A stretch of 64,000 nucleotides of DNA from an uncultured Acidobacteriota bacterium (lineage in GTDB: Bacteria; Acidobacteriota; Thermoanaerobaculia; Multivoradales; UBA5704), in assembly GCA_963770895.1 (NCBI GenBank), contig CAVYRF010000002.1:2176001-2240000 (forward strand), in the 5' to 3' direction. A model generated the notes under the pieces. It did no database searches and had not been told where the DNA came from. It was given only the letters and a program-made list of their open reading frames with translations. Shown here one piece after another: positions 1 to 48,298 of the stretch; the first letter of the stretch is position 1, and the number at the start of each line of letters is the position of its first letter. A program made the position numbers and the translations under genes.

Positions 1-33474
<33,474 letters not shown>

Positions 33475-35744: not shown

Positions 35745-36052
35745 GCCGACCTCCTTATGAGAAGGGGCGCAACAGTACGGCCCTTGGGTACCTTGATGCA
35801 TCGATTATACGCAATCGCATACCTCAAGACCACGACCTGTTATTTCTCCGGTAGAAGACGATGATGCGCATAGGTGGGGGGAGTTTGGCGGCGCGGTTGC
35901 TGCGCTGGACACTGTGCGAAGCTCGTGCTTTACTAGCTTTAAGTGAAAGTCAATAGTTCCCTCGCCGCGACCTTAACTTTAAAATACATTCATTGTTGAG
36001 CTGTCTCTGCAGAGCCGGGCGTCCCCCGGCGCGTAGAGGAAAGGTTTCCGCC

Positions 36053-37153
36053 ATGGATTTCGGCCTGATGTTTTTCGCCAGCGACAAGATCGGCCAGAGC
36101 GGCAAAGGCGCCGAGCGCTATGCGCTGCTGCTTGCGGCGTCGCGCTTTGCCGACCAGCACGGCTTCAGCGCCATCTGGACCCCCGAGCGTCACTTCCATT
36201 CCTTCGGCGGCATCTTCCCGAATCCGGCGGTCACCAGCGCCGCGCTCGCGGTGACGACCGAGCGGCTGGAGATCCGGGCGGGTAGCCTGATCTCGCCGCT
36301 GCACGATCCGATCCGCATCGCCGAGGAGTGGGCGGTGGTCGACAACCTGTCCAACGGCCGCGTCGCGATCTCCTTCGGCTCGGGATGGAACATTAACGAT
36401 TTCATTTTCTTTCCCGAGCGCTATAACACTCGCCAAGCGGTGATGCACGAGCAGATTCGCGAAGTCAAGGAAATCTGGAAAACGGGTGTGGCGAAGCGCA
36501 CCAACAGCCGCGGCGAGCCGGTCGAAATTGCGATCTATCCGCGGCCGATCCAGGCCGAGCTGCCGGTGTGGATCACCTCCTCCGGCAACGTCGACACCTT
36601 CGTCAGCGCCGGCCGCGCCGGCGCCAATCTGCTCACCCATCTGATCGGCCAGGACCTGCCGACCCTGGCGACCAAAATCGCCAGCTACCGCGCGGCGCGG
36701 CGCGAGGCGGGGCACGACCCGGCCGCCGGGCGCGTGGCCCTCATGCTCCACACCTTCCTCGGCAACGACATCGACGCCGTCAAGGAGACGGTGCGCAAGC
36801 CGTTCACCGCCTACATCGCCTCCGCCATCCGGCTGGAAGAAAAGGCCGCGAGCGCCGGCGGCGTGATGAGCGGCGGCCGCCTCATGGACCCCAGCGGCGT
36901 GCCGAGCGAAGTCTTCGACGAGCTGCTCGAGCTGACCTTCGAGCGCTACTTCCACACCGCGGCCCTCATGGGCACGCCGGCCTCCTGCCGCCAGTTCGTC
37001 GGCGAGGTGGCGCGGGCGGGCGTCGACGAAGCGGCCTGCCTCATCGACTTCCTCGGCGACGAAGACGCCATTCTCGGCGGCCTCGACCTGCTCGATCGTC
37101 TGCGCCAGGACTGCGCCGCCGACAAAACTCTTTCGCAAGGGGGAAAAACGTGA
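36053..37153 (+). CDS. LLM-class flavin-dependent monooxygenase (MupA/Atu3671-like, natural-product associated)
   Basis: MDFGLMFF, WTPERHFHSFGGIFPNP, HDPIRIAEEWAVVDNLSNGRV, GANLLTHL and ACLIDF motifs. Confidence 0.9.
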   Translation: MDFGLMFFASDKIGQSGKGAERYALLLAASRFADQHGFSAIWTPERHFHSFGGIFPNPAVTSAALAVTTERLEIRAGSLISPLHDPIRIAEEWAVVDNLSNGRVAISFGSGWNINDFIFFPERYNTRQAVMHEQIREVKEIWKTGVAKRTNSRGEPVEIAIYPRPIQAELPVWITSSGNVDTFVSAGRAGANLLTHLIGQDLPTLATKIASYRAARREAGHDPAAGRVALMLHTFLGNDIDAVKETVRKPFTAYIASAIRLEEKAASAGGVMSGGRLMDPSGVPSEVFDELLELTFERYFHTAALMGTPASCRQFVGEVARAGVDEAACLIDFLGDEDAILGGLDLLDRLRQDCAADKTLSQGGKT

Positions 37154-37155
37154 CC

Positions 37156-38445
37156 ATGACTGCCGATTACAGCTCCGCCGTCCCGGCGTTTCCGGGCAGC
37201 TTCGTCTTCTCGCTGCCCTGCACCGGCTCCACCCTCCTGCGCCTGATCCTCGATACCCACCCCGAGATCTACTGCCCGGACGAGGTGCGGCTGGGCAACG
37301 TCGTGCGCGCGCTCCACCACACGACCGAAGGTCTTTACGAGGTCGTCGCCGCGCCGGCGGGCGGCCCCGCTGCCGCCGGCGGCGCCCCCGAAAGCGCCGC
37401 CGTCGTCGAGACCCGGCGCATCGTCTGCGACCTCATGGGCCAGGCCGCGGCGCGCAAGGGCAAGAGCCGCTGGTGCGACAAGTCGCCCAGCAATCTCGGC
37501 AGCATGAGATTGATCGCAAGGGTTTTGCCCGCGGCCCGCAACATCCTCCTGCACCGCCACTGCCTCGACATGACCCAGTCGTGCCTCAAGCGCTCGACCT
37601 TCGGCTTCTACCTCGCCATCGTCGAGGACTACGTGCGCAAGAATCACCGCGATTTCCTCACCGCCACCATCCTTGCCTGGGTCGAGCAGACCGAGGAGCT
37701 CCTGCGCTTCGAAGCCGATCACGCGGGCCTCTGCCACCGCCTGCGCTACGAAGACCTGGTCGGCTCCCCCGACGCCGCCGTGGAGAGCCTCTTTGGCTTT
37801 CTGCAGGTGCCCTTCACGCCTGCCATCCTCGCCGGCGTCTTCGCCTCCCCGCGCTTCCAGCGCCAGGGCTGCGGCGACGCCGCCGTGCGCTACTCGCAAG
37901 CCATCGTCGACACGAGCGTCGGCAGCGGCGCCGATCTCGCCCCGGCCCTCGGCCGCGTCCCGCGCGATCTCTTCCAGCGCATGAACGACCTCCTCGTCCG
38001 CCTCGGCTACCTCGCGGTCGACCGCACCGCCGAAGGCTTCGACACCCATCTCGCCCGCCGCCAGCCTCCGGCCCAGGCCGGTGACACCGCGCCCGCCGCC
38101 GCCGCCGCTCCCTCCCTCTCCCTCGCCGACGTCTTCACCGGCCTCACCGAGCGCCTCCGTCTCGACCCCACCTTCGCCCCCAAGGTCGGCCAATCCTTTC
38201 AATTCGACCTCACCGGCCCCGGCGGCGGCGTCTGGGTCCTCGACCTCACCGCCGCGCCCGGCGCCGTCCACACCGGCCCCGCCCCCTCCGACGTCCAGCT
38301 GACCCTCCCGGCCGCCGACTTCGCCGCCGTCCTGACCGGCGCCCTCAACCCCATCACCGCCATCAAGCAAGGCCGCCTCCAACTCGCAGGCAACGTCGAC
38401 GAGCGCGCCCTGCAACAGCTCTTCGCCGGCCTCTTCAGCGGCTGA
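37156..38445 (+). CDS. Sulfotransferase-family protein with a C-terminal SCP2 lipid-binding domain
   Basis: PCTGSTLLRLILDTHP, WCDKSP and LRYEDLV...FL motifs. The C-terminus FQFDLTGPGGGVWVLD...GALNPITAIKQGRLQLAG is SCP2-like. An alternative GTG at 37150 overlaps the LLM stop. Confidence 0.85.
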   Translation: MTADYSSAVPAFPGSFVFSLPCTGSTLLRLILDTHPEIYCPDEVRLGNVVRALHHTTEGLYEVVAAPAGGPAAAGGAPESAAVVETRRIVCDLMGQAAARKGKSRWCDKSPSNLGSMRLIARVLPAARNILLHRHCLDMTQSCLKRSTFGFYLAIVEDYVRKNHRDFLTATILAWVEQTEELLRFEADHAGLCHRLRYEDLVGSPDAAVESLFGFLQVPFTPAILAGVFASPRFQRQGCGDAAVRYSQAIVDTSVGSGADLAPALGRVPRDLFQRMNDLLVRLGYLAVDRTAEGFDTHLARRQPPAQAGDTAPAAAAAPSLSLADVFTGLTERLRLDPTFAPKVGQSFQFDLTGPGGGVWVLDLTAAPGAVHTGPAPSDVQLTLPAADFAAVLTGALNPITAIKQGRLQLAGNVDERALQQLFAGLFSG

Positions 38446-38520: not shown

Positions 38521-40887
38521 ATGAGCGCTACGCCGGCGCCGCGCTCTGTGCGCCCTCGTTCTTCGCGGACAGCGCGCGGCAGGCCGCTCGCCGAGCTGCT
38601 GGCGACCTGCCTGGAAGCGCCGCGCCGGATCGACCGGCGGGTGGTGGCGCGGCTGGTGCGCGAGCTGGCGCCGGGCGGCGCCGATCCGCGGCTCGCCCTG
38701 GTGCTGCTGGCTGCATTGGTCTATGCCCGGCCCGGTCTGCTGCGCGCCGGCGACACCGCGCTGCTCGACCGCCTGCAGGCGCTGTGGCACGAAGCCCTGA
38801 CAACCGACCTCGCGGCACCGCTGGGCGCCGCCGTGCGGGCGGTGGCACAGACCGCCCTCGGCCCGGCGCTGGCCGCCCGCCTGCTGTTGCCCGCGCCTGG
38901 CCCGGGTGCCTCCGGCGCCCCTGGTGGCGCGGCGGCGCCGCTCGCCGGCGAGCGGCTGGACTGGCTGCGCTTCTTGGTGACGCGGTATCCCGACTGGATC
39001 GACCTCGATGCGCTCATCCGCTGCTGCGGCGTCGCCGCCGGCATGGTCGACAGCGAACGGGTGCTGGGAGAGCTGGTCGAACCGCTTCTCCACCATGCGC
39101 CCGAATCCTTCACGCCGGCGCGCCTGGACGCGCTGCGCGCGGCGTTCGGTGCGACCGAGCGCTGGCGCTACTTCGCGGCCTTTCTTGCCACGGAGCCGGC
39201 GGCGCCGTCCGCCACCCGGCACCGCGCCGCGGCGGCGCTTGCCGGGCAGCTGCCACGGTGCGGCGAGGCGAGGCGGCTGCGCGGCGGGCCGATGCGCTTG
39301 GCGGTGGTGCAGAACGTCGTCTTCGGCCAGGGCGACGAGCTGATCCGCCTGGCGCCGCTGCTGCAGGCGTTGCTCGACGGCCTGCCGCGGCTCGCCATCA
39401 CCCTGCTGACGCCGCGCCCCTACCTGTACGACCACCCGCGCGTGCGGGTGCTGCCGATCGGCGACTCGGCCGGCGCCGCGGCGCTGGACGGCGACTTCGA
39501 CGGGCTGATCGAGCTCTGGGAGCCCGAGGTCGCCGAGCTGAACGTCGTACCGGCGCTGCACGAGCGGGCCCGGCTGCTGGCGGCGCGACGGCCGCTCCGC
39601 CTGGAGATCGCCTGCAACCTCGGCGTCAATCACTTCGCCTTCCAGAAGGTCGCCCTCGACGGCGTCGACATCGCCGCCCGCCTGGGGCTGGACCGCCGGA
39701 CGGCACGGCAGGTCTACGATCCGGTCCGCCGCTTGCTCGTCGAGCTGGGCCTGCCTTTGCGCCGCGAACACGCGCCGCCGGCGCGCTCGCTGCTGGTCGG
39801 CATTCCGTCGCCCGAGGCGGAGGCGGCCTGGCGCGCCTTGGCTCCGGCGGGCCGTCCGGTGGCGCTCGTCAGCCCATTCGGCGGCACCCGAGAGATCAAG
39901 GGATACGCCACCGACAGACTGGACATCCTGGCGGGTGAGCTGCGCCAGCTGGTGCGTCAGGGCTATCGCGTGGTGGTGCTGCCCAACGGCCAGCCCTGGG
40001 TGACGCCCGACGTCATGGCCGCCCTGGTGACGCGGCTGCCGGTCGCCGAGCGCCGCCACCTGGCGGTGGCTCCCGATCCGGCAGGCCCGCTTCGGGCACC
40101 GTTACCCGGCGTGGACGGCGAGCGGCCCGACCTGCGGCGGCCGGCCGACCGCGTCATGCGTTGGTTCAAGTACTTCGCCGCGCGTGCCGACCTGGTGGTG
40201 AGCGTCGAGGGCTGGCTGTCCCACCTCGGCTGGCAGCTCGGTCGGCCGCTGCGAGTGGTGCTGGCGGCGCAGTCGTACGACGAGGCGTGGTACCCGCCGG
40301 CGCGCGACCGCGCGCAGCGGATCGTGGACCGGATTGCAAGCTGCCCGCCGCAGCGCGGCCGAGGGCGGGCGCCCGATTTGCTTGGCGACGGCGACCGGCC
40401 GCCGCTTCCCGGCCGCGACCGCAAGCAGCTGCTGGTCGCCGCCCTCGCCGGGCTGGGCGCCGCGGGGGGAGCCGCGGTGGAGCCGCTGCTGCTGCGGGCC
40501 GCCGGCAGCGCCGACGAGGATGTGCGAGCCGCGGCGCTCGCCGCCCTGGGCAGGCTGCCGCAGCACGAGGGCATCCGCCGGACGCTGCTGGCGGCGCTGG
40601 GCGCAGCGGACCCCGAGGTGCGGGGAGCGGCGGCGGAAGGGCTCCTGGCAAGCGGGTTCGACTGCGCGCCGGAGCTTGGCGAACGCTATCGTGACGTGCT
40701 CACCGCGCACGTGGCGATCGCCGCGCGTGCCTGGGTGAGCGTCGACGATCTCGGCGCCCCGGCCATCCCGGCGCTGGCGGTCGCCGCCGCCGGGCGGGAC
40801 GACTTCATGCGCCGTGAGGCGCGCTGGCTCCTGGGCAGGCTGCTGCGGCGGCAGGTCAGGCCGTCGCGGCAGGCGGGCGGCCGGTGA
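38521..40887 (+). CDS. GT9 (heptosyltransferase-like) glycosyltransferase with helical N-terminus and C-terminal HEAT repeats
   Basis: GQGDELIRLAPLLQAL, LVSPFGG and ADLVVSVEGWLSHLGWQLGRP resemble GT9 motifs. DEDVRAAALAALG / DPEVRGAAAEGL / DDFMRREARWLLG are HEAT-like. Confidence 0.6.
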   Translation: MSATPAPRSVRPRSSRTARGRPLAELLATCLEAPRRIDRRVVARLVRELAPGGADPRLALVLLAALVYARPGLLRAGDTALLDRLQALWHEALTTDLAAPLGAAVRAVAQTALGPALAARLLLPAPGPGASGAPGGAAAPLAGERLDWLRFLVTRYPDWIDLDALIRCCGVAAGMVDSERVLGELVEPLLHHAPESFTPARLDALRAAFGATERWRYFAAFLATEPAAPSATRHRAAAALAGQLPRCGEARRLRGGPMRLAVVQNVVFGQGDELIRLAPLLQALLDGLPRLAITLLTPRPYLYDHPRVRVLPIGDSAGAAALDGDFDGLIELWEPEVAELNVVPALHERARLLAARRPLRLEIACNLGVNHFAFQKVALDGVDIAARLGLDRRTARQVYDPVRRLLVELGLPLRREHAPPARSLLVGIPSPEAEAAWRALAPAGRPVALVSPFGGTREIKGYATDRLDILAGELRQLVRQGYRVVVLPNGQPWVTPDVMAALVTRLPVAERRHLAVAPDPAGPLRAPLPGVDGERPDLRRPADRVMRWFKYFAARADLVVSVEGWLSHLGWQLGRPLRVVLAAQSYDEAWYPPARDRAQRIVDRIASCPPQRGRGRAPDLLGDGDRPPLPGRDRKQLLVAALAGLGAAGGAAVEPLLLRAAGSADEDVRAAALAALGRLPQHEGIRRTLLAALGAADPEVRGAAAEGLLASGFDCAPELGERYRDVLTAHVAIAARAWVSVDDLGAPAIPALAVAAAGRDDFMRREARWLLGRLLRRQVRPSRQAGGR

Positions 40888-42013
40888 GAAAGCGGCTGGC
40901 GGCCGGCGCACCCCCGGCCTGCGCCTCGGCCAGCTGGCGCTTGGTGCGGAACTCCAGCTCGCGGCCGCCGCCGCACGCCTCGGCGCGCCCGTAGCATGCG
41001 GCGCTCTCGGCGAAGCGCCCCAGGCGGAAGTTGCACAGCCCGGCGGCGTCCCAGGCGAGCACGCCGAAGATCCGCTCGTCGTGCGCCAGCTGCCCGGCGC
41101 AGAGCGCCGCCGGATCGACGGCGGTGAGGCGGGACAGCAGCGGCAGCGCCGCCTCCGGGCAGCCGCCGGCGAGCAGGTGGCGCGCCCGCAACCAGACCAG
41201 CGTCCACTGGTCGGGAAACGCCGCCGCGGCTTCGGCCAGCAGGCCGTCCACCGGCTCGCCCAGCTCCATCAGCACCTGCAGCATGCCGACGTAGACCAGA
41301 CTGTCGGTCGCCGCCGGCGCCCGGGCGGCGCGCACCACGGCGAGGCCGCTCTGGTAGGCGGTACGCGCCGCCTCCAGATCGCCGATGCCATGCAGCGTGC
41401 TGCCGAGGTGCCACCAGGCATAGACGTGCTCGGGCTCGGCGCGCAGCCGCGCCTCGAGCAGCGGCCGGTTGCGCCGGTGCTTGGCCGCCATGTCGCCGTC
41501 GTAGCCCAGGTGGTCGATCGCCAGGTCGCTCTCGCCGATGGTGCCGCCGCCCTGGCGCAGCAGCTCGCCGAGCGCCGGCAGGTGGCTCTCGTGGATGACG
41601 CCGCGGAAGCGCAGGCGCGGGTCGTTGCGGAACAGACGGTGCTCGCGGTAGCGGGTGAAGCCGCGCGCCGGCCGGAAGCGCACCGTGCAGGCCAGCAGGC
41701 GAGGATCGGCGAGCTGCTCGGCGAGGCGGGAGCGGCCGGCCTCGCACACCCGCTCGTCGGCATCGATGTAGAGGACCCACCTGCCGCGCACCGCGTCCAG
41801 CGCTGCGTTGCGTGCCGCGGCAAAATCCTGCCGCCACGGGAAGTCGACGACGCGGGCGCCATGGCGATGGGCGATCTCGCGGCTGCGGTCGACGGAGCCG
41901 GTGTCGGCGATCACCACCTCATCGGCGACGCCATGGAGCGACTCCAGGCAGCCGTCCAGGAAGCGCTCCTCGTCGCGCACGATCATCGCGGCGCTGAGCA
42001 GCAGCGAGCTCAC
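40856..42013 (-). CDS. GT2 glycosyltransferase with TPR region (SunS/ThuS-like architecture)
   Basis: AMIVRDEE, DTGSVD, DFAAARNAAL, IDADE, IHE, HLGY and KHRRN motifs, then TPR-like helices. GTG start at 42013 inferred. Confidence 0.88.
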   Translation of the reverse strand: MSSLLLSAAMIVRDEERFLDGCLESLHGVADEVVIADTGSVDRSREIAHRHGARVVDFPWRQDFAAARNAALDAVRGRWVLYIDADERVCEAGRSRLAEQLADPRLLACTVRFRPARGFTRYREHRLFRNDPRLRFRGVIHESHLPALGELLRQGGGTIGESDLAIDHLGYDGDMAAKHRRNRPLLEARLRAEPEHVYAWWHLGSTLHGIGDLEAARTAYQSGLAVVRAARAPAATDSLVYVGMLQVLMELGEPVDGLLAEAAAAFPDQWTLVWLRARHLLAGGCPEAALPLLSRLTAVDPAALCAGQLAHDERIFGVLAWDAAGLCNFRLGRFAESAACYGRAEACGGGRELEFRTKRQLAEAQAGGAPAASRFLTGRPPAATA

Positions 42014-42041
42014 CGGCGTTTCGGGGGCAGCGTGCCTGCCA

Positions 42042-42518
42042 CTAGTACGGCACGACGTAGACGACGATCTGGAAGACCGCGCTGTCACCGCCCAGCAGGT
42101 TGGCGATGCTGGCCTGCACCGTGCCGCCGCTGCCCACCGGCGGCGTCACCAGCGACCATGCCGGATCGCCGCTCAGCTTGGACGCCGAGACAAAGGTGGT
42201 CCCGGCCGGCAGGGGATCGACGAGCGAGACCGCCGGCGCCAAGCTGCCGGTGCAGTTCTGCACCGTGATGGTGTAGGTGAGGTTGTTGCCGGCGGTCACC
42301 TCGGCGGCGGAGACGGTCTTCTGGACGTCCACCAGCGGGCCGATGTTGGCGGCGCAGAGGTTCGATCCCTGGCCGAGGGCCTGCTCGGCGAGCAGGCCGC
42401 CGAGCGTGAAGGAGGCGACGAGCGGCGTCGCCCAGGCCCCTGCCAGCATGCGCAGGATGAACTGCCGCCGATCGGGGTCGACGTGCGGGAGGATCTGGGT
42501 CAGCTCTTCGGGCGCCAT
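42042..42518 (-). CDS. Twin-arginine-leader protein B with SNLC motif and C-terminally incomplete DUF11 domain
   Basis: MAP...PDRRQF leader; DVQKTVS..VTAGNNLTYTITVQN..VDPLPAGTTFVSAS..IANL..GDSAVFQIVV then stop. Confidence 0.8.
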   Translation of the reverse strand: MAPEELTQILPHVDPDRRQFILRMLAGAWATPLVASFTLGGLLAEQALGQGSNLCAANIGPLVDVQKTVSAAEVTAGNNLTYTITVQNCTGSLAPAVSLVDPLPAGTTFVSASKLSGDPAWSLVTPPVGSGGTVQASIANLLGGDSAVFQIVVYVVPY

Positions 42519-42916
42519 GGGCGTCTGCCTCCAGAGAGTCGAGTGGCGTGCGGCGGGCGGCGCAGGTACGCCAGCGCCGTCGCGGCCAGCAGCAGGCAGG
42601 AGATGACGAGCCCCGCCGGCGACAGCGCCGGCACCTGGGCGATCGGACCGCGATCGACCTGGGTGGTCGCGGTCGCCGTGCGGTGCACGGTGACGGTCGC
42701 CTGCGCCTGGTTGTTGCCGGTCTGCGGGTCGCTCTCCGAGGCGGTGACGCCCGCCGCGGCATCGATCAGGTAGTCGAGCGTCACCGTGTTGGTGATCTCG
42801 ACCGCGGCCCTGGCGCTGGGTGCGCCCAGGGTCCACAGCACCGCCAGGCAGAGCGCTGCCGCCGAGCGCGGCAGCAGGCGGCGAAGCGGCAAACCGGCGC
42901 CTTGCGGGTCCGCCAT
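42500..42916 (-). CDS. Small secreted IPTL-CTERM protein carrying the terminal DUF11 strands
   Basis: Signal peptide ending ARA; ITNTVT...SESDPQTGNNQAQATVTV; VPALSPAGLVISCLLLAATALAYLRR sorting signal. The ATG overlaps the upstream stop (TGATG). Confidence 0.78.
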   Translation of the reverse strand: MADPQGAGLPLRRLLPRSAAALCLAVLWTLGAPSARAAVEITNTVTLDYLIDAAAGVTASESDPQTGNNQAQATVTVHRTATATTQVDRGPIAQVPALSPAGLVISCLLLAATALAYLRRPPHATRLSGGRRPWRPKS

Positions 42917-43410
42917 CAGAGCACCGTCGCCTTGATCGCGAAGGTCGCGCTGGCGCCCTTCGCCAGGCTGTCGAAGACGCCCGCCACGGTACCGGCGAAA
43001 CCCACGGGAGGCGTGGACAGGTCGGTGACGGGGGGCCCGGTGAGCTGCGTGGCGGAAACGAAGGCGGCGCCCACGGGCACCTTCTGGTCGAAATTCACGT
43101 TGGTGGCCGTGCAGGGTCCGCAGTTGGTCACCGTCAGAGTGTAGGTGATGGTGTCGCCCGGCGACGCGGTCTGCGGCGACGCCGCCACTCCCACCGCGAC
43201 GTCGGCCATGGCCGGATTGCCGCAGATAGCGCCGGTGTTGGCGCACAGGTTGGATGCCTGCGCCCGCGCCGGTTCGACCAGCAGCCCGTCGAGCGAGAAC
43301 GAGGCGACGATCGGCGCCGCGTAGGCGGCACCCAGGAGCAGCCTGGAGAGGAACTGACGGCGGTCCGGAGCGAGCCCATCGAACCGTTGCGGTTTTGCGT
43401 CTGGCGCCAT
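42916..43410 (-). CDS. Twin-arginine-leader protein A with SNLC motif and C-terminally incomplete DUF11 domain
   Basis: MAP...PDRRQF leader; ADVAV..SPQTASPGDTITYTLTVTNCGP..ATNV..VPVGAAFVSAT..SLAKGASATFAIKATVL then stop. Confidence 0.8.
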   Translation of the reverse strand: MAPDAKPQRFDGLAPDRRQFLSRLLLGAAYAAPIVASFSLDGLLVEPARAQASNLCANTGAICGNPAMADVAVGVAASPQTASPGDTITYTLTVTNCGPCTATNVNFDQKVPVGAAFVSATQLTGPPVTDLSTPPVGFAGTVAGVFDSLAKGASATFAIKATVL

Positions 43411-43561: not shown

Positions 43562-44305
43562 TTGCCGTACCTTAGAGCGGGCAGCTGGGATGACGCCATC
43601 TGGCGCTCGGTGGCGGACGATTATCCGGCGGTGCCTGCCCGCTTCGCGGCCGGCGACGTGGTGCTCGACCTGGGCGCGCACATCGGCGCCTTCGCCGCTC
43701 TCGCCGCCGCCCGCGGCGCACGCGTGGTGGCCTACGAAGCCAGCTGGCACAACCTGGCGCTGGCGCGTCTCAACACCGCCTCGCTGGCAGGGGTTGAAGT
43801 GCGGTGGGGCGCGGTCTGGCGCTCCGACCTGCCGCCGGCGCCCCGCTGGTACACGCCGGCGCCCAACGCCGCCAACACCGGCGGCGGCTCGGTGCTCTTC
43901 GCCGGTGCCATGGCGGTGAGCGCCGATGCCGGCGTCGACCCGTGGGGCGCCGGCACTGGCCGAGATGCCGAAGTTGAGGTGGCGCCGCGGGCGCACGCGG
44001 TGCCGGCGGTGCCGCTCGACGACATCCTGTGCGAGCTCGGCGCGGTGCGCCTGCTCAAGCTCGACGTCGAAGGTTCCGAGGTGCCGATCCTGGCCACCTC
44101 GCGCCAGCTCGCCAGGGTGGTGCAGATCACCGGCGAGGCACACGACCTGAGCGTCGGGCAGCAGGGCCGTCTGGCGCCCGACGCGCAGGTCGCGGGCGTA
44201 TCCTGCGATGCGAGCGGCCTTGCCGCAGTCCTCGGCGGCGCCGGCTTCACGGTGGCGATGACCGGTGCCGGGCCGCTGCGGCTGTTCAATGCCTGGCGGG
44301 CCTGA
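43562..44305 (+). CDS. FkbM-family methyltransferase
   Basis: VLDLGAHIG, VVAYEA, NTGG and LLKLDVEGSE motifs. Confidence 0.88.
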   Translation: MPYLRAGSWDDAIWRSVADDYPAVPARFAAGDVVLDLGAHIGAFAALAAARGARVVAYEASWHNLALARLNTASLAGVEVRWGAVWRSDLPPAPRWYTPAPNAANTGGGSVLFAGAMAVSADAGVDPWGAGTGRDAEVEVAPRAHAVPAVPLDDILCELGAVRLLKLDVEGSEVPILATSRQLARVVQITGEAHDLSVGQQGRLAPDAQVAGVSCDASGLAAVLGGAGFTVAMTGAGPLRLFNAWRA

Positions 44306-44343
44306 CCGGCGCGCCGCCCGCCACCCGCTGCCCGCCACCCGCA

Positions 44344-45261
44344 ATGAGCACGCCCGTCATCTGCCTCTACAACCGCTTCTTCGAGCGCTGGCCGGTCGCC
44401 GCCGAGATCGGCGCCGAGATCGCTTTCCGGTTTGGCGCCGAGACTCTTGCCGGCGCCGACGCCGTGGTCTTCCATCTGCCGACGCTGGGTGTGCTTCCCG
44501 AGCGCCCCAGAGCTGCGGCGGGCGCCGGCGCCCCGCCGCAGCTCTGGGTGGCCTGGTGTCTGGAAAGCGCCGTCGTCTGTCCGCGGCTCGCCGACCCGCG
44601 GGCGATGGGGCGTTTCGATCTGACCATGACCTACCAACGATCGAGCGATGTCTGGTGGCCTTACTTCGGGCCCGGCACGGTGCCGCACCTGCTGGCGCCG
44701 CCGGGCGTCAAGGGTCCTGGCGCGCCGGTCGTGCACCTGCAATCCAACCCCTTCGATCGCAGCGGGCGCAACCGCTTCGCCGCCGGGCTGATGCGGCGCA
44801 TCAAGGTGGACTCCTACGGCACCGTCCTGCGCAACCGGACCGAGGTCGTGGCGCCCAGCTATGCGGGTCGCACCGCGGTCATGGCCCGCTACAAGTTCAC
44901 CCTGGCGCTCGAGAACTCCATCGCGCACGACTATGTGACCGACAAGTTCTTCGACGCGTTGGCGGCAGGCTCGGTGCCCGTCTACCGCGGCACCCGCGAG
45001 GTGGCCGATCTCGCGCCCGCGCCCGGCTGCTACATCGATGCGGCCGACTTCGCCTCGCCAAGCGAGCTCGCCGCGCACCTCGACCGCCTAGACCGCGACG
45101 ACGCCGCCTATGCCGCCCATCACGCCTGGCGCCATGGAGGCTTCTCGGAAGCTTTTCTCCAGCACCTCCGCCGCCTCGAACGGCCGCCCTTTGCCCGGCT
45201 GGCCGAGCACGTCCAGGACTGGATCGCGGCCGGCCGCCCGCCGCGGCAACGATCGGACTAG
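44344..45261 (+). CDS. GT10 alpha-1,3/4-fucosyltransferase-like protein
   Basis: ADAVVFH, FDLTMTYQRSSDV, VDSYG and YKFTLALENSIAHDYVTDKFFDALAAGSVPVYRG (the FucT signature). Confidence 0.9.
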   Translation: MSTPVICLYNRFFERWPVAAEIGAEIAFRFGAETLAGADAVVFHLPTLGVLPERPRAAAGAGAPPQLWVAWCLESAVVCPRLADPRAMGRFDLTMTYQRSSDVWWPYFGPGTVPHLLAPPGVKGPGAPVVHLQSNPFDRSGRNRFAAGLMRRIKVDSYGTVLRNRTEVVAPSYAGRTAVMARYKFTLALENSIAHDYVTDKFFDALAAGSVPVYRGTREVADLAPAPGCYIDAADFASPSELAAHLDRLDRDDAAYAAHHAWRHGGFSEAFLQHLRRLERPPFARLAEHVQDWIAAGRPPRQRSD

Positions 45262-45336: not shown

Positions 45337-45696
45337 TCAAGCCTGAGGCGCGATGCCAGAGCCGCCGGCGCCGTCGGCGGATGGCGGCGCCGCCTCGTCG
45401 ACTCCTTCGATCAATCCTTCCGCGAGGAACTGCGCCAGACATTCCGCCACCTCGTCGCGCGGCGGCTCGGGAAGATGGAAGCTCCGCGCCAGGAAGGACG
45501 GCAGGGCGGCAGCGGGCGTTGCGCCATCGCACAGCGTGAGCAAAAGAGCCGCGGTCCGGTTCAAGTAATGCACGCGGTCCCGCTCCGGGTGATAGGCGAC
45601 GAACCCGTCGGTCACCTCGCTGAGCTCGACACCTGCGGCCAGCCGCAGCCGCATCTGCCAATCGACCGCGGCGCCCCGCTCCACCGTCTCTCCCAT
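45337..45696 (-). CDS. Stand-alone PqqD-family / RiPP recognition element (RRE) protein
   Basis: EVTDGFVAYHPERDRVHYLNRTAALLLTLCDG...EVAECLAQFLAEGLI, the beta3-alpha3 PqqD pattern. Confidence 0.88.
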   Translation of the reverse strand: MGETVERGAAVDWQMRLRLAAGVELSEVTDGFVAYHPERDRVHYLNRTAALLLTLCDGATPAAALPSFLARSFHLPEPPRDEVAECLAQFLAEGLIEGVDEAAPPSADGAGGSGIAPQA

Positions 45697-45871: not shown

Positions 45872-46675
45872 ATGAGTCGACTCACTCTCCGATGGTTCAA
45901 TCTCACTCAGCGCGATGGGCAGGACCTATGTCTGAAGATCCCAATTTGCAACGTTTATGCTCCGATAATCGATCGGGCTTTTCCTGAAGTGACGCACATC
46001 GAGTGGAGGCAGGGCACGCAAGGCACCTGCTTCACCTATCTCAAGCATATAACCTCCGAAGACTTTGACTCCCTCAACGACTTCCTCCAGCTTCTCGGCG
46101 AGATTCGCTGTCTAACGCTGACCGATCACCTCGCTCCGCACTTTCAAGCCGAACTGGACGAAGCATATGCGCTAGACTTCAATTTTCAGACAGATCTCTT
46201 CCCTCTTGCCTACACGGAAATGGGCAGTCTCGAACACATTGCGAAGGAGCAACAGAATCGCGCCGCCATAGCTCAACTCAACATCCGGCTTGCCGAAGTC
46301 ATCCGCCGCCACCCCTCACTTTCCCGCGTTGAGTTCGTTGCGCCAATGCCGCCGCGCCCCTCAAAGAATTTTCATCTCCCTGTTGAAATGGCTAAGGGCA
46401 TAGGTGCGATCTTGGGGTGCCCAGTCGACCTGAGTCTCACCAAGGCGGAGCATCCGAAACTTCGAACGCTTCCCATTAGGCAGAAGGTCTCCGCGCTTGA
46501 GGAAGCCTTCTCGATTGGAGGCTCGGTTGAAGGTAAAGCCATTCTAATCGTTGACGACCTTTACCAGTCTGGCGCAAGTCTTTGGTCGCTCGCCAGGTTT
46601 TTGAAGTCCCGCGGAGCCCGACTAGTCTATGGACTGGCATGCGTCAAGTCGTGGAGTGATACCGACAACCAATGA
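45872..46675 (+). CDS. Phosphoribosyltransferase-fold (ComF-like) protein, putative defence toxin
   Basis: PRPP-binding motif ILIVDDLYQSGASL. Visibly lower GC than the flanks. Confidence 0.8.
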   Translation: MSRLTLRWFNLTQRDGQDLCLKIPICNVYAPIIDRAFPEVTHIEWRQGTQGTCFTYLKHITSEDFDSLNDFLQLLGEIRCLTLTDHLAPHFQAELDEAYALDFNFQTDLFPLAYTEMGSLEHIAKEQQNRAAIAQLNIRLAEVIRRHPSLSRVEFVAPMPPRPSKNFHLPVEMAKGIGAILGCPVDLSLTKAEHPKLRTLPIRQKVSALEEAFSIGGSVEGKAILIVDDLYQSGASLWSLARFLKSRGARLVYGLACVKSWSDTDNQ

Positions 46676-47646
46676 TGCAGCAAACTCAGTCCATTGAGTT
46701 CGTAGCTTTCTGTCTTCAGGCTGCGCCTGGAGTAGGCGCATCCACGCTTCGCATGGTTCTGAAACGCCTCGCTCAAGAACGGCTCGCACCAGAAGCCCTC
46801 TTCCAACTCGACGACCACGACTTGCTGTTGCGCTTCGGGCTCAAGCCCTCCGCTGTCGCTGCGCTCCGAGAGCCTTGCGACGAAACGCTGGAAACCTGGC
46901 AACGCCTCAAAGCGGAATCTGTGAAGATCCTTGTTTGGGGCCAGGCTGCCTACCCAACGCGGCTCTATACCCTCCTTCGCGACACTGCCCCTCCCTTGCT
47001 TTTTCTCGTCGGCGGGCTAGACAGTTTCGGACGTCCAGCAGTGGGCTTCTGCGGCTCCAGGAGGGCGTCTGAAAAGGGGTTGCGAGTAGCGCGCGATTGT
47101 GCGCATCTGCTGGCGAAACAACAAATCAATGTCGTCAGTGGTTACGCTCATGGCGTTGATCTCGCCGCGCATCGCGCAGCTTTGGAGGCGGGAGGTACTA
47201 CGACCGTCGTGTTGCCCGAGGGTATTCTTCACTTCCGGGTCAAGAGCGAAATTCGCGACTTGCTGAGCGCAGGAGACTTTTCGCGCATCGCCGTTGTGTC
47301 CGAGTTCCCTCCTGGCTTGCCGTGGCGGGCTCACAATGCAATGGCACGCAATCGTACGATCTGTGGCCTTTCACACGCGTTGGTCGTAATAGAATCAGGT
47401 CCGGATGGAGGCACATTCGAAGCAGGCAAAGCCGCACTTAAACTCGGTGAGCCTCTGTTCTGTATCGAATATGCCGAGACACCTCCAGAAGCGGCAGGTA
47501 ATCCGTACTTCTTGAAACATGGAGCCTTCAGTCTGAGGCGCGCGCCGAATGGCGAGCCTAACCTCTCCAGGCTCATGTCTGTCGTACGTGAGGGCGGCAG
47601 GAACTTTGGACAACCGCACCAGCAGGAGCTACTCCTGCACGAGTAA
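46672..47646 (+). CDS. DprA/Smf-family protein, putative antitoxin partner
   Basis: YPTRL, GFCGSR, VVSGYAHGVD, VVSEF, RNRTICGLS and ESGPDGGT motifs. ATGA overlap with the PRTase gene. Confidence 0.9.
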   Translation: MMQQTQSIEFVAFCLQAAPGVGASTLRMVLKRLAQERLAPEALFQLDDHDLLLRFGLKPSAVAALREPCDETLETWQRLKAESVKILVWGQAAYPTRLYTLLRDTAPPLLFLVGGLDSFGRPAVGFCGSRRASEKGLRVARDCAHLLAKQQINVVSGYAHGVDLAAHRAALEAGGTTTVVLPEGILHFRVKSEIRDLLSAGDFSRIAVVSEFPPGLPWRAHNAMARNRTICGLSHALVVIESGPDGGTFEAGKAALKLGEPLFCIEYAETPPEAAGNPYFLKHGAFSLRRAPNGEPNLSRLMSVVREGGRNFGQPHQQELLLHE

Positions 47647-47833
47647 TCAGGCTATTTCTGTAAATACCGCAATAAATTAAAACAGCTGATTCTGCGTGGC
47701 GGGGATCCGGCCGAGCTGCGCCTCTGGTTCCTCCCTTGAAGGCGCTTCATGCTCCAACGGCCCCAAAGTAAAGCGCGGCTCACGGGCTGTGCTTGGCCCG
47801 TCTGTATAAACTACGTAATCTGTGGTGTTTAGA

Positions 47834-47910
47834 TGGTGCGCCCAAGAGGATTCGAACCTCTGACCTACAGCTCCGGAGGCTGTCGCTCTATCCAGCTGAG
47901 CTATGGGCGC
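47834..47910 (-). tRNA. tRNA-Arg(CCG)
   Basis: Reverse complement GCGCCCATAGCTCAGCTGGATAGAGC...CTCCGGA...GGTTCGAATCC...GGGCGCACCA. Confidence 0.97.
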
Positions 47911-47933
47911 GGGGGGTGGGTTTTCAAGGGAGG

Positions 47934-48009
47934 TGGCCTGCCTGGAGGGATTCGAACCCCCGACCCGCGGCTTAGAAGGCCGCCGCTCTATCCACTGAGC
48001 TACAGGCAG
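47934..48009 (-). tRNA. tRNA-Arg(TCT)
   Basis: CTGCCTGTAGCTCAGTGGATAGAGC...CTTCTAA...GGTTCGAATCC...CAGGCAGGCCA. Confidence 0.97.
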
Positions 48010-48065
48010 CGGTTGCGGCCCGTCTTCCGCTTGGCCAGGGAGCTACCTCGGGTCAGCCGTCGGTA

Positions 48066-48139
48066 TCGGGGCGCCCAGATTTGAACTGGGGACCCCCTGC
48101 GCCCAAGGCAGGTGCGCTACCAGGCTGCGCTACGCCCCG
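48066..48139 (-). tRNA. tRNA-Pro(TGG), CCA not encoded
   Basis: CGGGGCGTAGCGCAGCCTGGTAGCGC...CTTGGGC...GTTCAAAT...CGCCCCGA. Confidence 0.95.
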
Positions 48140-48298
48140 ACGGAAACGCTTGGTGAGTCTAAGCTAGCGCGCGGAAAGGTGTCAAACGCGGCCGCCGGCG
48201 GTCCTCAAGGGCAGGACCCCGCCGGTGGTGCGCCGGCGCGGTCGGCAGCCGGTGGTGGCGGCAGCGGTCGACAGCCAAAGGGCGGCTGGTGGCGGCGG

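Follow-up and report, generated by a model that had tools for sequence, protein, structure and literature searches.

Two paralogous genes, here called A and B, lie a few hundred nucleotides apart in a 64,000-nt stretch of DNA (the window) from an uncultured Acidobacteriota bacterium (assembly GCA_963770895.1, contig CAVYRF010000002.1), and each encodes a twin-arginine leader followed by a truncated DUF11/CLIPPER domain. As judged from profile searches, each protein carries in its first ~55 residues a copy of an unnamed leader module of wide occurrence, which may act both as a twin-arginine translocation (Tat)-type signal and as a recognition sequence for cytoplasmic glycosylation. Nucleotide positions are those of the window, and labels beginning with P, L and G denote the proteins, loci and genomes compared. 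The genes in question are the following.

42916..43410, minus strand: gene A (P0001, 164 aa), with a leader followed by a truncated DUF11/CLIPPER domain
43240..43410, minus strand: leader of A, residues 1-57, with DRRQFL, the hydrophobic stretch LLLGAAYAAPIVASFSL, ARA before Q, and SNLC
42500..42916, minus strand: small partner gene P0002 (138 aa), between A and B
42042..42518, minus strand: gene B (P0003, 158 aa), with a leader followed by a truncated DUF11/CLIPPER domain
42351..42518, minus strand: leader of B, residues 1-56, with DRRQFI, a hydrophobic stretch, ALG before Q, and SNLC
40856..42088, minus strand: GT2-TPR glycosyltransferase gene, directly downstream of B; candidate modifying enzyme
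45337..45696, minus strand: PqqD-like gene, open reading frame (ORF) open to 45906, probable start 45696; candidate leader-binding chaperone

A, P0002 and B are three closely packed minus-strand genes followed by the GT2-TPR gene; the start of P0002 overlaps the stop of A by 1 nt, and its end overlaps the start of B. An earlier note on this DNA had described both proteins as having a MAP start, RR at residues 17-18, SNLCA behind ARA in A or ALG in B, and a second Cys in TVxNC. All of this holds in the translations of the two ORFs, with coordinates and sequences exact; SNLCA spans residues 52-56, and TVxNC reads TVTNC in A and TVQNC in B. Acidic residues, which had been placed inside the hydrophobic segment, are found instead after the hydrophobic stretch, in the c-region.

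The impression that the leader is better conserved than the mature domain is borne out by the alignment of A with B (45% overall identity by BLASTP, E 7e-38), in which 28/43 residues are identical in leader positions 14-56 (65%) compared with 39/100 in the mature part (39%; Fisher p = 0.006), while the first 13 residues share 4/13. Among 12 full-length members, the leader is the more conserved part in 60 of 66 pairwise comparisons, which are not independent of one another, with means of 69% vs 58%. Simple recent duplication had been named as the alternative, and it is ruled out, together with gene conversion, by codon usage and by the existence of closer relatives elsewhere. Identical residues share the same codon at 14/28 positions in the leader and 16/39 in the mature part, and A and B belong to separate subfamilies, with closer relatives in P0039 for A and P0005-P0008 (70-80%) for B. 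Because synonymous sites are equally diverged in the two parts, leader conservation between A and B is, on codon evidence, a result of selection and not of a recent copy. When 15 family sequences are aligned, the leader keeps D16, R17, R18, F20, L25, A28, P32, V34, A35, S36, F37, G41, L42, A47, N53 and C55 without exception, and C89 of the mature domain is likewise invariant.

The leader module and its gene neighbourhood

A profile built from seven leaders, searched against a library of 1.84 billion representatives (clusters at 50% identity), matched 686 proteins with E<=1e-3, and 30 when the threshold was E<=1e-10; in a search of their own genome, the leaders of A and B matched it at E 5e-22 and 4e-19. 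Such a leader-alone search for other cargo had been proposed in the earlier note, and it places the leader on many unrelated peptides and proteins. The counts of conservation, tails and cargo given here come from the 150 listed of the 686 matches. Four candidates (P0040, P0069, P0085 and P0182), long proteins with many partial internal matches, were excluded as family members, and the remaining listed matches carry the leader at the N-terminus.

The consensus can be written as ..VD.SRRxFLKKLxxGxAFAAPxVASFSMxGLxxxxAxAQxSN-x-(S/T/C). Over the 150 aligned leader stretches, the second Arg is present in all and the first position is R or K in 147, followed by F in 111, L in 102 and K/R in 126. Further on, P34 is found in 150/150, A37 in 125, S38 in 134, F39 in 147, G43 in 115 and L44 in 126; the AxA site is represented by A49 (126/150) and A51 (122/150), and Q52 and S54 by 73 and 75. 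Tails behind the leader are no longer than 25 aa in 42 of 142 matches, such as Q-G-S-N-L-S-G, and many of the proteins total only 54-70 aa. Other cargo includes DUF11, pentapeptide repeats, Peptidase_S74, Hint and domains without a Pfam match. The leader is not covered by any model of Pfam or NCBIfam, the sole matches being weak ones to Tat-signal models, and a literature search, supplements not covered, found no description of the family. Its distribution is patchy: among 401 genomes of the phylum searched, the leader occurs in 5, two of them convincing (G000 and G048), and the full-length form among 41 relatives is confined to G000 and G029. No longer proteins (278-2000 aa) with the leader of B were found, which is weak evidence. 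A weak local likeness of the leader (PLVASF...SNLC) to the last strands of a preceding DUF11 repeat (35 bits, mostly domain start) was treated as chance, since the same leader sits on non-DUF11 cargo. The family is thus large and unnamed, and the leader profile, combined with the PqqD and GT2-TPR neighbours described below, offers a simple handle for genome mining.

Just after the AxA site, the family carries the motif (S/G)-N-x-(S/T/C), of which SNLC is the Cys variant. The Asn (N55) is conserved in 102 of 111 aligned stretches. In 71/125 cases the first Asn stands three residues past AxA; 17 of the 142 leader matches, which are without such an Asn or cut off, are left out of this number. The second residue after Asn is T in 35, S in 28 and C in 18, giving S/T/C in 81/125. 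Moreover, the 10,892 residues of the tails contain 232 instances of N-x(not P)-(S/T/C) vs 111 +/- 8.9 expected from 200 within-tail shuffles (maximum 137), and GNMT, ANTT or SNLT is repeated in some tails. Among the DUF11-type leader proteins, C55 is found in 31/31 and C89 in 30/31. The earlier proposal that SNLC is the modification site is therefore plausible, as the site is the Cys variant of a family motif, and its alternative, the SNLC Cys as a disulfide partner, with C89 as the mate, also fits the sequences.

The leader follows Tat grammar in several respects. The n-region consensus (S/T)-R-R-x-F-L-K fits PDRRQFLSR in A and PDRRQFILR in B, and an uncharged stretch of about 16 residues (LLLGAAYAAPIVASFSL in A) leads to an AxA-type site, ARA before Q in A and ALG before Q in B. 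Within 46 leader-family members, the Tat models TIGR02811 and TIGR01409 match 16 and 11, respectively, and TatC is encoded in the genome that holds the window (G000; 202.8 bits, above the cut-off). The leader is the sole hydrophobic N-terminal segment of A and B, and both proteins must be exported because the domain type is extracytoplasmic and the partner P0002 has a signal for the general secretory (Sec) pathway. In the AlphaFold2 (AF2) model of B, a helix spans 15-29 and the leader (29-58) has a predicted local distance difference test (pLDDT) value below 50.

The genes form a recurrent cassette in the order PqqD-like, leader-DUF11, small IPTL protein and GT2-TPR, which is found again on contig C1 of this genome and in three Acidobacteriota metagenome-assembled genomes (MAGs). 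A Geminicoccaceae MAG carries PqqD, a leader with non-DUF11 cargo, and GT2-TPR. In addition, 80 metagenome loci (L013-L092), many of them on short contigs, were scored for PqqD and GT2-TPR with hidden Markov models built from the cassettes. GT2-TPR is present anywhere in the locus in 61/80 and PqqD in 41/80. PqqD lies upstream in 23 of the 24 loci with at least 2 kb of upstream sequence, the glycosyltransferase (GT) downstream in 28 of the 35 with at least 1.5 kb downstream, and both in 15 of the 19 with both flanks. The GT starts 10-340 nt past the leader gene, with two exceptions only, and the PqqD gene lies upstream at one of two distances, 33-80 nt or, where a P-loop gene intervenes, about 0.9-1.2 kb; this intervening gene weakly resembles HprK-related kinase A (E 2e-9, far below the cut-off). 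Leader genes occur in tandem in 12/80 loci. The frequent neighbours are GT4, NTP_transf_5, GT87 and mannosyltransferase genes, and neither a protease nor a transporter was seen among the 11 ORFs of L071, L074 and L045 examined with family libraries or in the ORF lists of seven loci.

In most loci with short precursors, the PqqD and precursor genes flank a P-loop gene of HprK-related-kinase-like type, and NTP_transf_5 (PF14907) is present as well; examples of these kinase-like and NTP_transf_5 genes lie at 5085-5966 in L071 and at 4838-5662 and 7603-8760 in L074. An HprK-like and NTP_transf_5 enzyme pair phosphorylates and then glycosylates lasso peptides, and by analogy some branches of the leader family may carry phospho-linked sugars.

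The GT2-TPR protein of the window matches PF00535 (E 2e-19) and TPR models, its true start is probably later than the listed GTG, and no signal or membrane segment was seen in it. Its nearest solved relatives are GmaR (22ao, E 7e-23), ThuS (7msk, 1e-14) and SunS (7msn/7msp, about 1e-13 to 5e-13), all of which glycosylate proteins or peptides. By profile score, it is a cousin of the SunS family and not a member. The PqqD-like protein matches PF05402 (E 1e-6, 29.4 bits vs a gathering score of 23.4) and TIGR04353 (E 2e-6, 28.4 bits vs a cut-off of 35), and was aligned with the PqqD genes of L001-L005. As in clusters whose precursors are recognized through a RiPP recognition element (RRE; RiPP, a peptide made on the ribosome and modified after translation), a PqqD/RRE-like protein is encoded in the cluster and would bind the leader. 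A complex prediction of PqqD-like residues 1-100 with the leader of A scored 0.42 in three runs, but one control with an unrelated partner scored 0.32, so that the prediction speaks neither way on binding.

Truncated domains and a putative split partner

Behind the leader, A matches PF01345 over residues 70-163 at profile positions 1-84 of 114 (E 1e-14, 55.3 bits vs a gathering score of 24.6) and B at positions 3-84 of 114 (E 6e-13, 49.6 bits vs 24.6); both also match TIGR01451, A with E 6e-14. For B, AF2 predicts 7 strands between residues 63 and 155 (pLDDT 82-92), and the best solved fold is the CLIPPER domain 9IFR (E 9e-5). All 19 members inspected end 1-4 residues past an F-x-(L/I)-V-V-x-V strand, and where complete DUF11 repeats have the first Asn of TVTNNGP, A and B have the Cys of TVxNC (C89). 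From these alignments, the DUF11/CLIPPER domains of A and B stop after their seventh strand, so that the nine-strand fold is incomplete in one chain.

The missing part appears in the neighbouring gene. P0002 has its own signal peptide, the last DUF11 strands (EITNTVT...NNQAQATVTV), a linker and an IPTL-CTERM-like anchor; it matches PF01345 at profile positions 65-114 of 114 (E 7e-4), and when the two are aligned to P0020, a complete repeat, B takes up positions 7-87 and P0002 positions 77-123. Its C-terminus reads VPALSPAGL...RR, a weak match to TIGR04174 IPTL_CTERM (E 0.003, 17.8 bits vs a cut-off of 20.5); PF18203 is found in 6/8 P0002 relatives from a hairpin-partner search, and the partner in L093 carries IPTLSP. 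P0002 and five counterparts share a Sec-type signal, an invariant T-N-T-x-T-V strand, a second strand, a Pro/Ala linker and an IPTL-CTERM-type anchor. Six DUF11-type loci have sequence context (L005, L001-L003, L093 and A of the window), and in each the partner gene lies directly downstream; B, located between P0002 and the GT gene, has no partner gene of its own. In the unsplit relatives P0022 and P0027, the signal peptide, a whole DUF11 and a C-terminal anchor are combined in one chain. P0002 thus probably completes and anchors A and B in trans by supplying the missing strands, and for DUF11-type members such as B we regard such strand completion as reasonably probable.

The 3' end of P0002 overlaps the beginning of B by 19 nt, and its tail RRPPHATRLSGGRRPWRPKS extends past the usual IPTL-CTERM end; the same long tail is present in P0190, a near-identical relative. 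The long tail and the overlap together fit an insertion of B between the partner gene and the GT gene.

The split also runs through the residues of an isopeptide bond. The complete CLIPPER domain has nine strands, a Lys-Asn isopeptide bond and a catalytic Asp (10.1101/2025.04.25.650565). In the HMMER alignment, K67 of B pairs with the Lys at position 10 of the 9IFR chain and D101 with the Asp of LNDTL; the equivalence of D101 to the catalytic Asp is probable, the Asp being one residue off the published number. Asn at chain position 101 falls in the xxNTATV motif of complete repeats, whose counterpart here is N43 of P0002 (ITNTVT). B therefore has K67 and D101 without the Asn strand, and A lacks both Lys and Asp, its beta-1 segment reading VAVGVAAS and its Asp position being Q. 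Among the 31 DUF11-type leader proteins, Lys is kept in 22 and Asp in 28; both are absent in A and P0039, and Lys is absent in L001-L003, P0014, P0015, P0096 and P0098. Because Lys and Asp are kept in a chain without the Asn strand, the bond might still form, now between two chains: after export, the IPTL-CTERM partner could capture the truncated domain by inserting its strands and by a Lys67-Asn43 isopeptide bond formed spontaneously between the chains, a tentative idea that we consider rather doubtful at present.

The nearest precedent is the split of labour in the engineered pairs isopeptag/pilin-C and SpyTag/SpyCatcher, in which, as here, one part brings Lys and Asp (B) and the other the Asn strand (the partner). 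Unlike in those systems, the split here would be natural and involve two genes and two export signals, and A and eight further members are without the Lys. A literature search found no natural split isopeptide domain. If the bond exists, nature would have in this CLIPPER pair its own version of SpyTag/SpyCatcher, a protein-ligation device that could be used as a tool at once.

The A subfamily (A residues 56-100 and P0039) has four Cys (SNLC, AICG and NCGPC), not two; a pair of disulfides, and not a covalent bond with the partner, may give it stability.

Proposed mechanism, alternatives and known systems

The earlier suggestion that the leader is a recognition sequence finds comparative support in its occurrence on hundreds of unrelated cargos and beside PqqD and GT2-TPR genes. 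Conservation, gene linkage, the relatives of the enzyme, the motif statistics and TatC are observed; binding itself is something we infer, as are the chemistry, acceptor, route and cleavage. The reading we lean towards, as somewhat more probable than its negation, is that the leader is a Tat-type signal doubling as a recognition sequence for glycosylation in the cytoplasm before export. The second role is suggested because residues are conserved beyond Tat grammar and because the PqqD and GT neighbours are near-constant. In such a pathway, P32, VASF and GL would be the recognition residues for the PqqD-like chaperone and the SunS/GmaR-like GT2-TPR enzyme. The chaperone would bind the leader in the cytoplasm, and the GT would act immediately past the cleavage site, either on the Asn or on the S/T/C at the second position after it (S-N-L-C in A and B), after which other transferases may extend the glycan. 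Tat carries what Sec cannot thread, and the modified, folded protein would leave through it. Signal peptidase would then cut after ARA or ALG to expose Q-x-S-N-L-C at the new N-terminus, and C55 would probably pair with C89 of the domain. In a narrower version, the cytoplasmic GT2-TPR, guided by the PqqD-bound Tat leader, would attach an N-linked sugar to the conserved Asn of (S/G)N-x-(S/T/C), and Tat would export the glycopeptide or glycoprotein, with the split domain as a corollary for DUF11-type members such as B; this version must be called speculative, its probability being low.

Several observations weigh against this proposal. S/T/C at the second position after Asn is absent in 35% of family members. 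The 80 metagenome loci were selected with a single peptide pattern, F[AV][AV]PVVASF, which biases them to the PVVASF subtype, and several of them are near-duplicates. The GT is missing in 7 of the 35 loci with enough downstream sequence; four of these seven, L031, L033, L060 and L062, have an adjacent PqqD and a larger cargo without the GT, and because of them glycosylation is not taken as universal in the family. In the window itself, the PqqD gene and A are separated by two opposite-strand genes. The best NCBIfam model for GT2-TPR is the SunS family TIGR04195 (E 1e-15), which it matches with 57.6 bits vs a cut-off of 350, and at such a distance neither acceptor nor sugar can be read from that family; the known relatives of the enzyme form O- or S-linkages, not N-linkages. 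As for the signal, the c-region of about 10 residues is acidic and longer than usual, and a basic residue is common in the c-region of Tat signals. A and B match no Tat-signal model (PF10518, TIGR01409) at E<=1, a search with just the B leader gave no such match up to E 10, and Pfam TAT_signal (PF10518) is found in only 2 of the 46 leader-family members.

These difficulties leave room for simpler explanations. A plain Tat or Sec signal, conserved by ancestry only, with SNLC relevant as one half of a C55-C89 disulfide, would account for the ordinary signal grammar of RR-x-F-L, hydrophobic stretch and AxA, for the joint presence of the two Cys in 30/31 DUF11-type members, and for C89 in the place of the usual Asn of TVTNNGP; moreover, AF2 gives the leader no defined structure beyond the helix 15-29, and at pLDDT <50 the model is silent on the C55-C89 contact and on leader packing. 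Ordinary signal peptides, however, do not stay conserved when the cargo is unrelated, and this explanation fits poorly with a leader conserved residue by residue over 150 stretches on unrelated cargo and tied to PqqD and GT2-TPR genes, and with tails of 5-20 residues that are too short to fold. Because the second residue after Asn is T or S in 63/125 vs C in 18/125, a disulfide cannot explain the motif in general, and we hold this explanation to be unlikely. The Tat resemblance may conversely be superficial, and the leader a purely cytoplasmic RiPP-type one, bound by PqqD, removed by a protease and followed by another export route. PqqD in 23/24 loci, tandem short precursors, the failure of A and B to match a Tat model, and HprK-like and NTP_transf_5 genes in many loci, as in clusters of modified lasso peptides, speak for this. 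Set against it are the invariant twin Arg, the conserved hydrophobic stretch and AxA site, the lack of a dedicated protease or transporter among the annotated proteins, and the extracytoplasmic type of the cargo of A and B with its Sec-secreted partner, which make it more improbable than a plain signal. Lipidation of Cys55 after Tat export, with SNLC as a lipobox-like site, would use the invariant Cys a few residues past the hydrophobic region. The lipobox [LVI][ASTVI][GAS]C needs a small residue (G/A/S) at -1, however, and positions -3 to -1 here are S-N-L, the AxA site lies 4-5 residues before the Cys, and T or S is far commoner than C at this position in the wider family. It was rejected on sequence and has hardly any probability left.

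Several known systems come close to a Tat leader with a recognition role. Glycocins, sublancin (SunA/SunS) and thurandacin (ThuA/ThuS), likewise combine a cytoplasmic GT2 having a helical/TPR C-terminal part with a ribosomally made substrate encoded beside it, and the conserved motif here includes a Cys or Ser/Thr. They differ in that the window GT2-TPR scores far below the SunS cut-off, and glycocins are not known to have an RRE or PqqD. Their leaders are of the double-glycine type and their exporters ABC/C39, neither of which was seen here; instead, a leader with Tat grammar may precede a whole folded domain, and a conserved Asn stands in the motif. A literature search found no work joining glycocin/SunS and twin-arginine among the papers listed. 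GmaR, the flagellin O-GlcNAc transferase of Listeria (GT2 + TPR), is the best solved relative of the catalytic domain and glycosylates, in the cytoplasm, a protein destined for export. Its flagellin substrate, in contrast, leaves through the flagellar apparatus, with no leader and no PqqD.

The Tat proofreading chaperones TorD, DmsD and NapD, which bind Tat signal peptides, are alike in principle, as a dedicated cytoplasmic protein stays on a family-specific Tat leader until maturation is done. They have other folds and serve cofactor insertion, whereas a PqqD/RRE-type candidate and glycosylation are at issue here. In the nearest named set, the HPr-rel-A system of NCBIfam (TIGR04352, HprK-related kinase A; TIGR04353, PqqD family peptide chaperone), the likeness lies in the PqqD genes, which match TIGR04353 best (E 2e-6 in the window and 5e-7 in L071), and in the HprK_rel_A-like and NTP_transf_5 genes of many metagenome loci. 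Scores are below the cut-offs (28-31 vs 35 bits; 37 vs 200), the window cassette is without a kinase or a nearby PF14907 gene, the PF14907 genes of the genome being elsewhere, and a literature search found no paper on this system. N-glycosyltransferase (NGT/HMW1C) glycosylates cytoplasmically at the N-x-S/T sequon, which recalls the family motif N-x-(S/T/C); NGT belongs to GT41, while the enzyme here is a GT2, and no NGT-like gene was seen in the cassettes. The RiPP-type pattern of a conserved leader, a variable core and short, often tandem precursors is present in the family, although A and B, at 158-164 aa, are not short peptides. The system would work like a glycocin pathway joined to an RRE-guided leader and Tat proofreading, and by the tests run it is a member of none of these.

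If the main reading holds, the family (686 clusters in the library searched) would mark a pathway by which bacteria glycosylate peptides and entire domains in the cytoplasm and send them out folded through Tat, linking RRE-guided RiPP biosynthesis, protein glycosylation and Tat proofreading, which have been treated separately so far. The narrower version, if true, would add to the two bacterial routes of N-linked (or sequon-directed) glycosylation a third one, and no RiPP-like pathway before it would have used a Tat signal for a leader. The short precursors, whose core can be reduced to Q-x-S-N-x-S, make the chemistry accessible to mass spectrometry.

Other features of the window

The two plus-strand genes between the PqqD-like gene and A, and three features elsewhere in the window, are as follows.

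43562-44305, plus strand: FkbM-type methyltransferase (TIGR01444, E 2e-13)
within 44029-45261, plus strand: GT10 fucosyltransferase-like gene (PF00852 E 3e-30, PF17039 E 1e-10)
35993-37153: MupA/Atu3671-type luciferase-like monooxygenase, adjoining the nonribosomal peptide synthetase (NRPS) described below
within 36568-38445: sulfotransferase-SCP2 fusion, adjoining the NRPS; it may serve the NRPS product or the glyco-cassette
38521-40887, plus strand: 788-aa protein whose only family match is C-terminal HEAT repeats; it converges on the GT2-TPR gene

The FkbM methyltransferase and the GT10-like gene are possibly glycan-tailoring, as putative members of the system. An open frame of more than 11,000 aa occupies positions 1-33474 of the plus strand and runs off the window start. 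Its last 4,000 residues contain repeated Condensation, AMP-binding and PP-binding domains and a methyltransferase domain, and by this domain content the giant frame is an NRPS. A low-GC island at 45872-48140 (56-58% vs about 71-73% around it) holds a ComF-like phosphoribosyltransferase gene and a DprA/SLOG-like gene; it adjoins a cluster of tRNA-Arg(ccg), tRNA-Arg(tct) and tRNA-Pro(tgg), and its appearance is that of a two-gene module, small and acquired, beside tRNAs.

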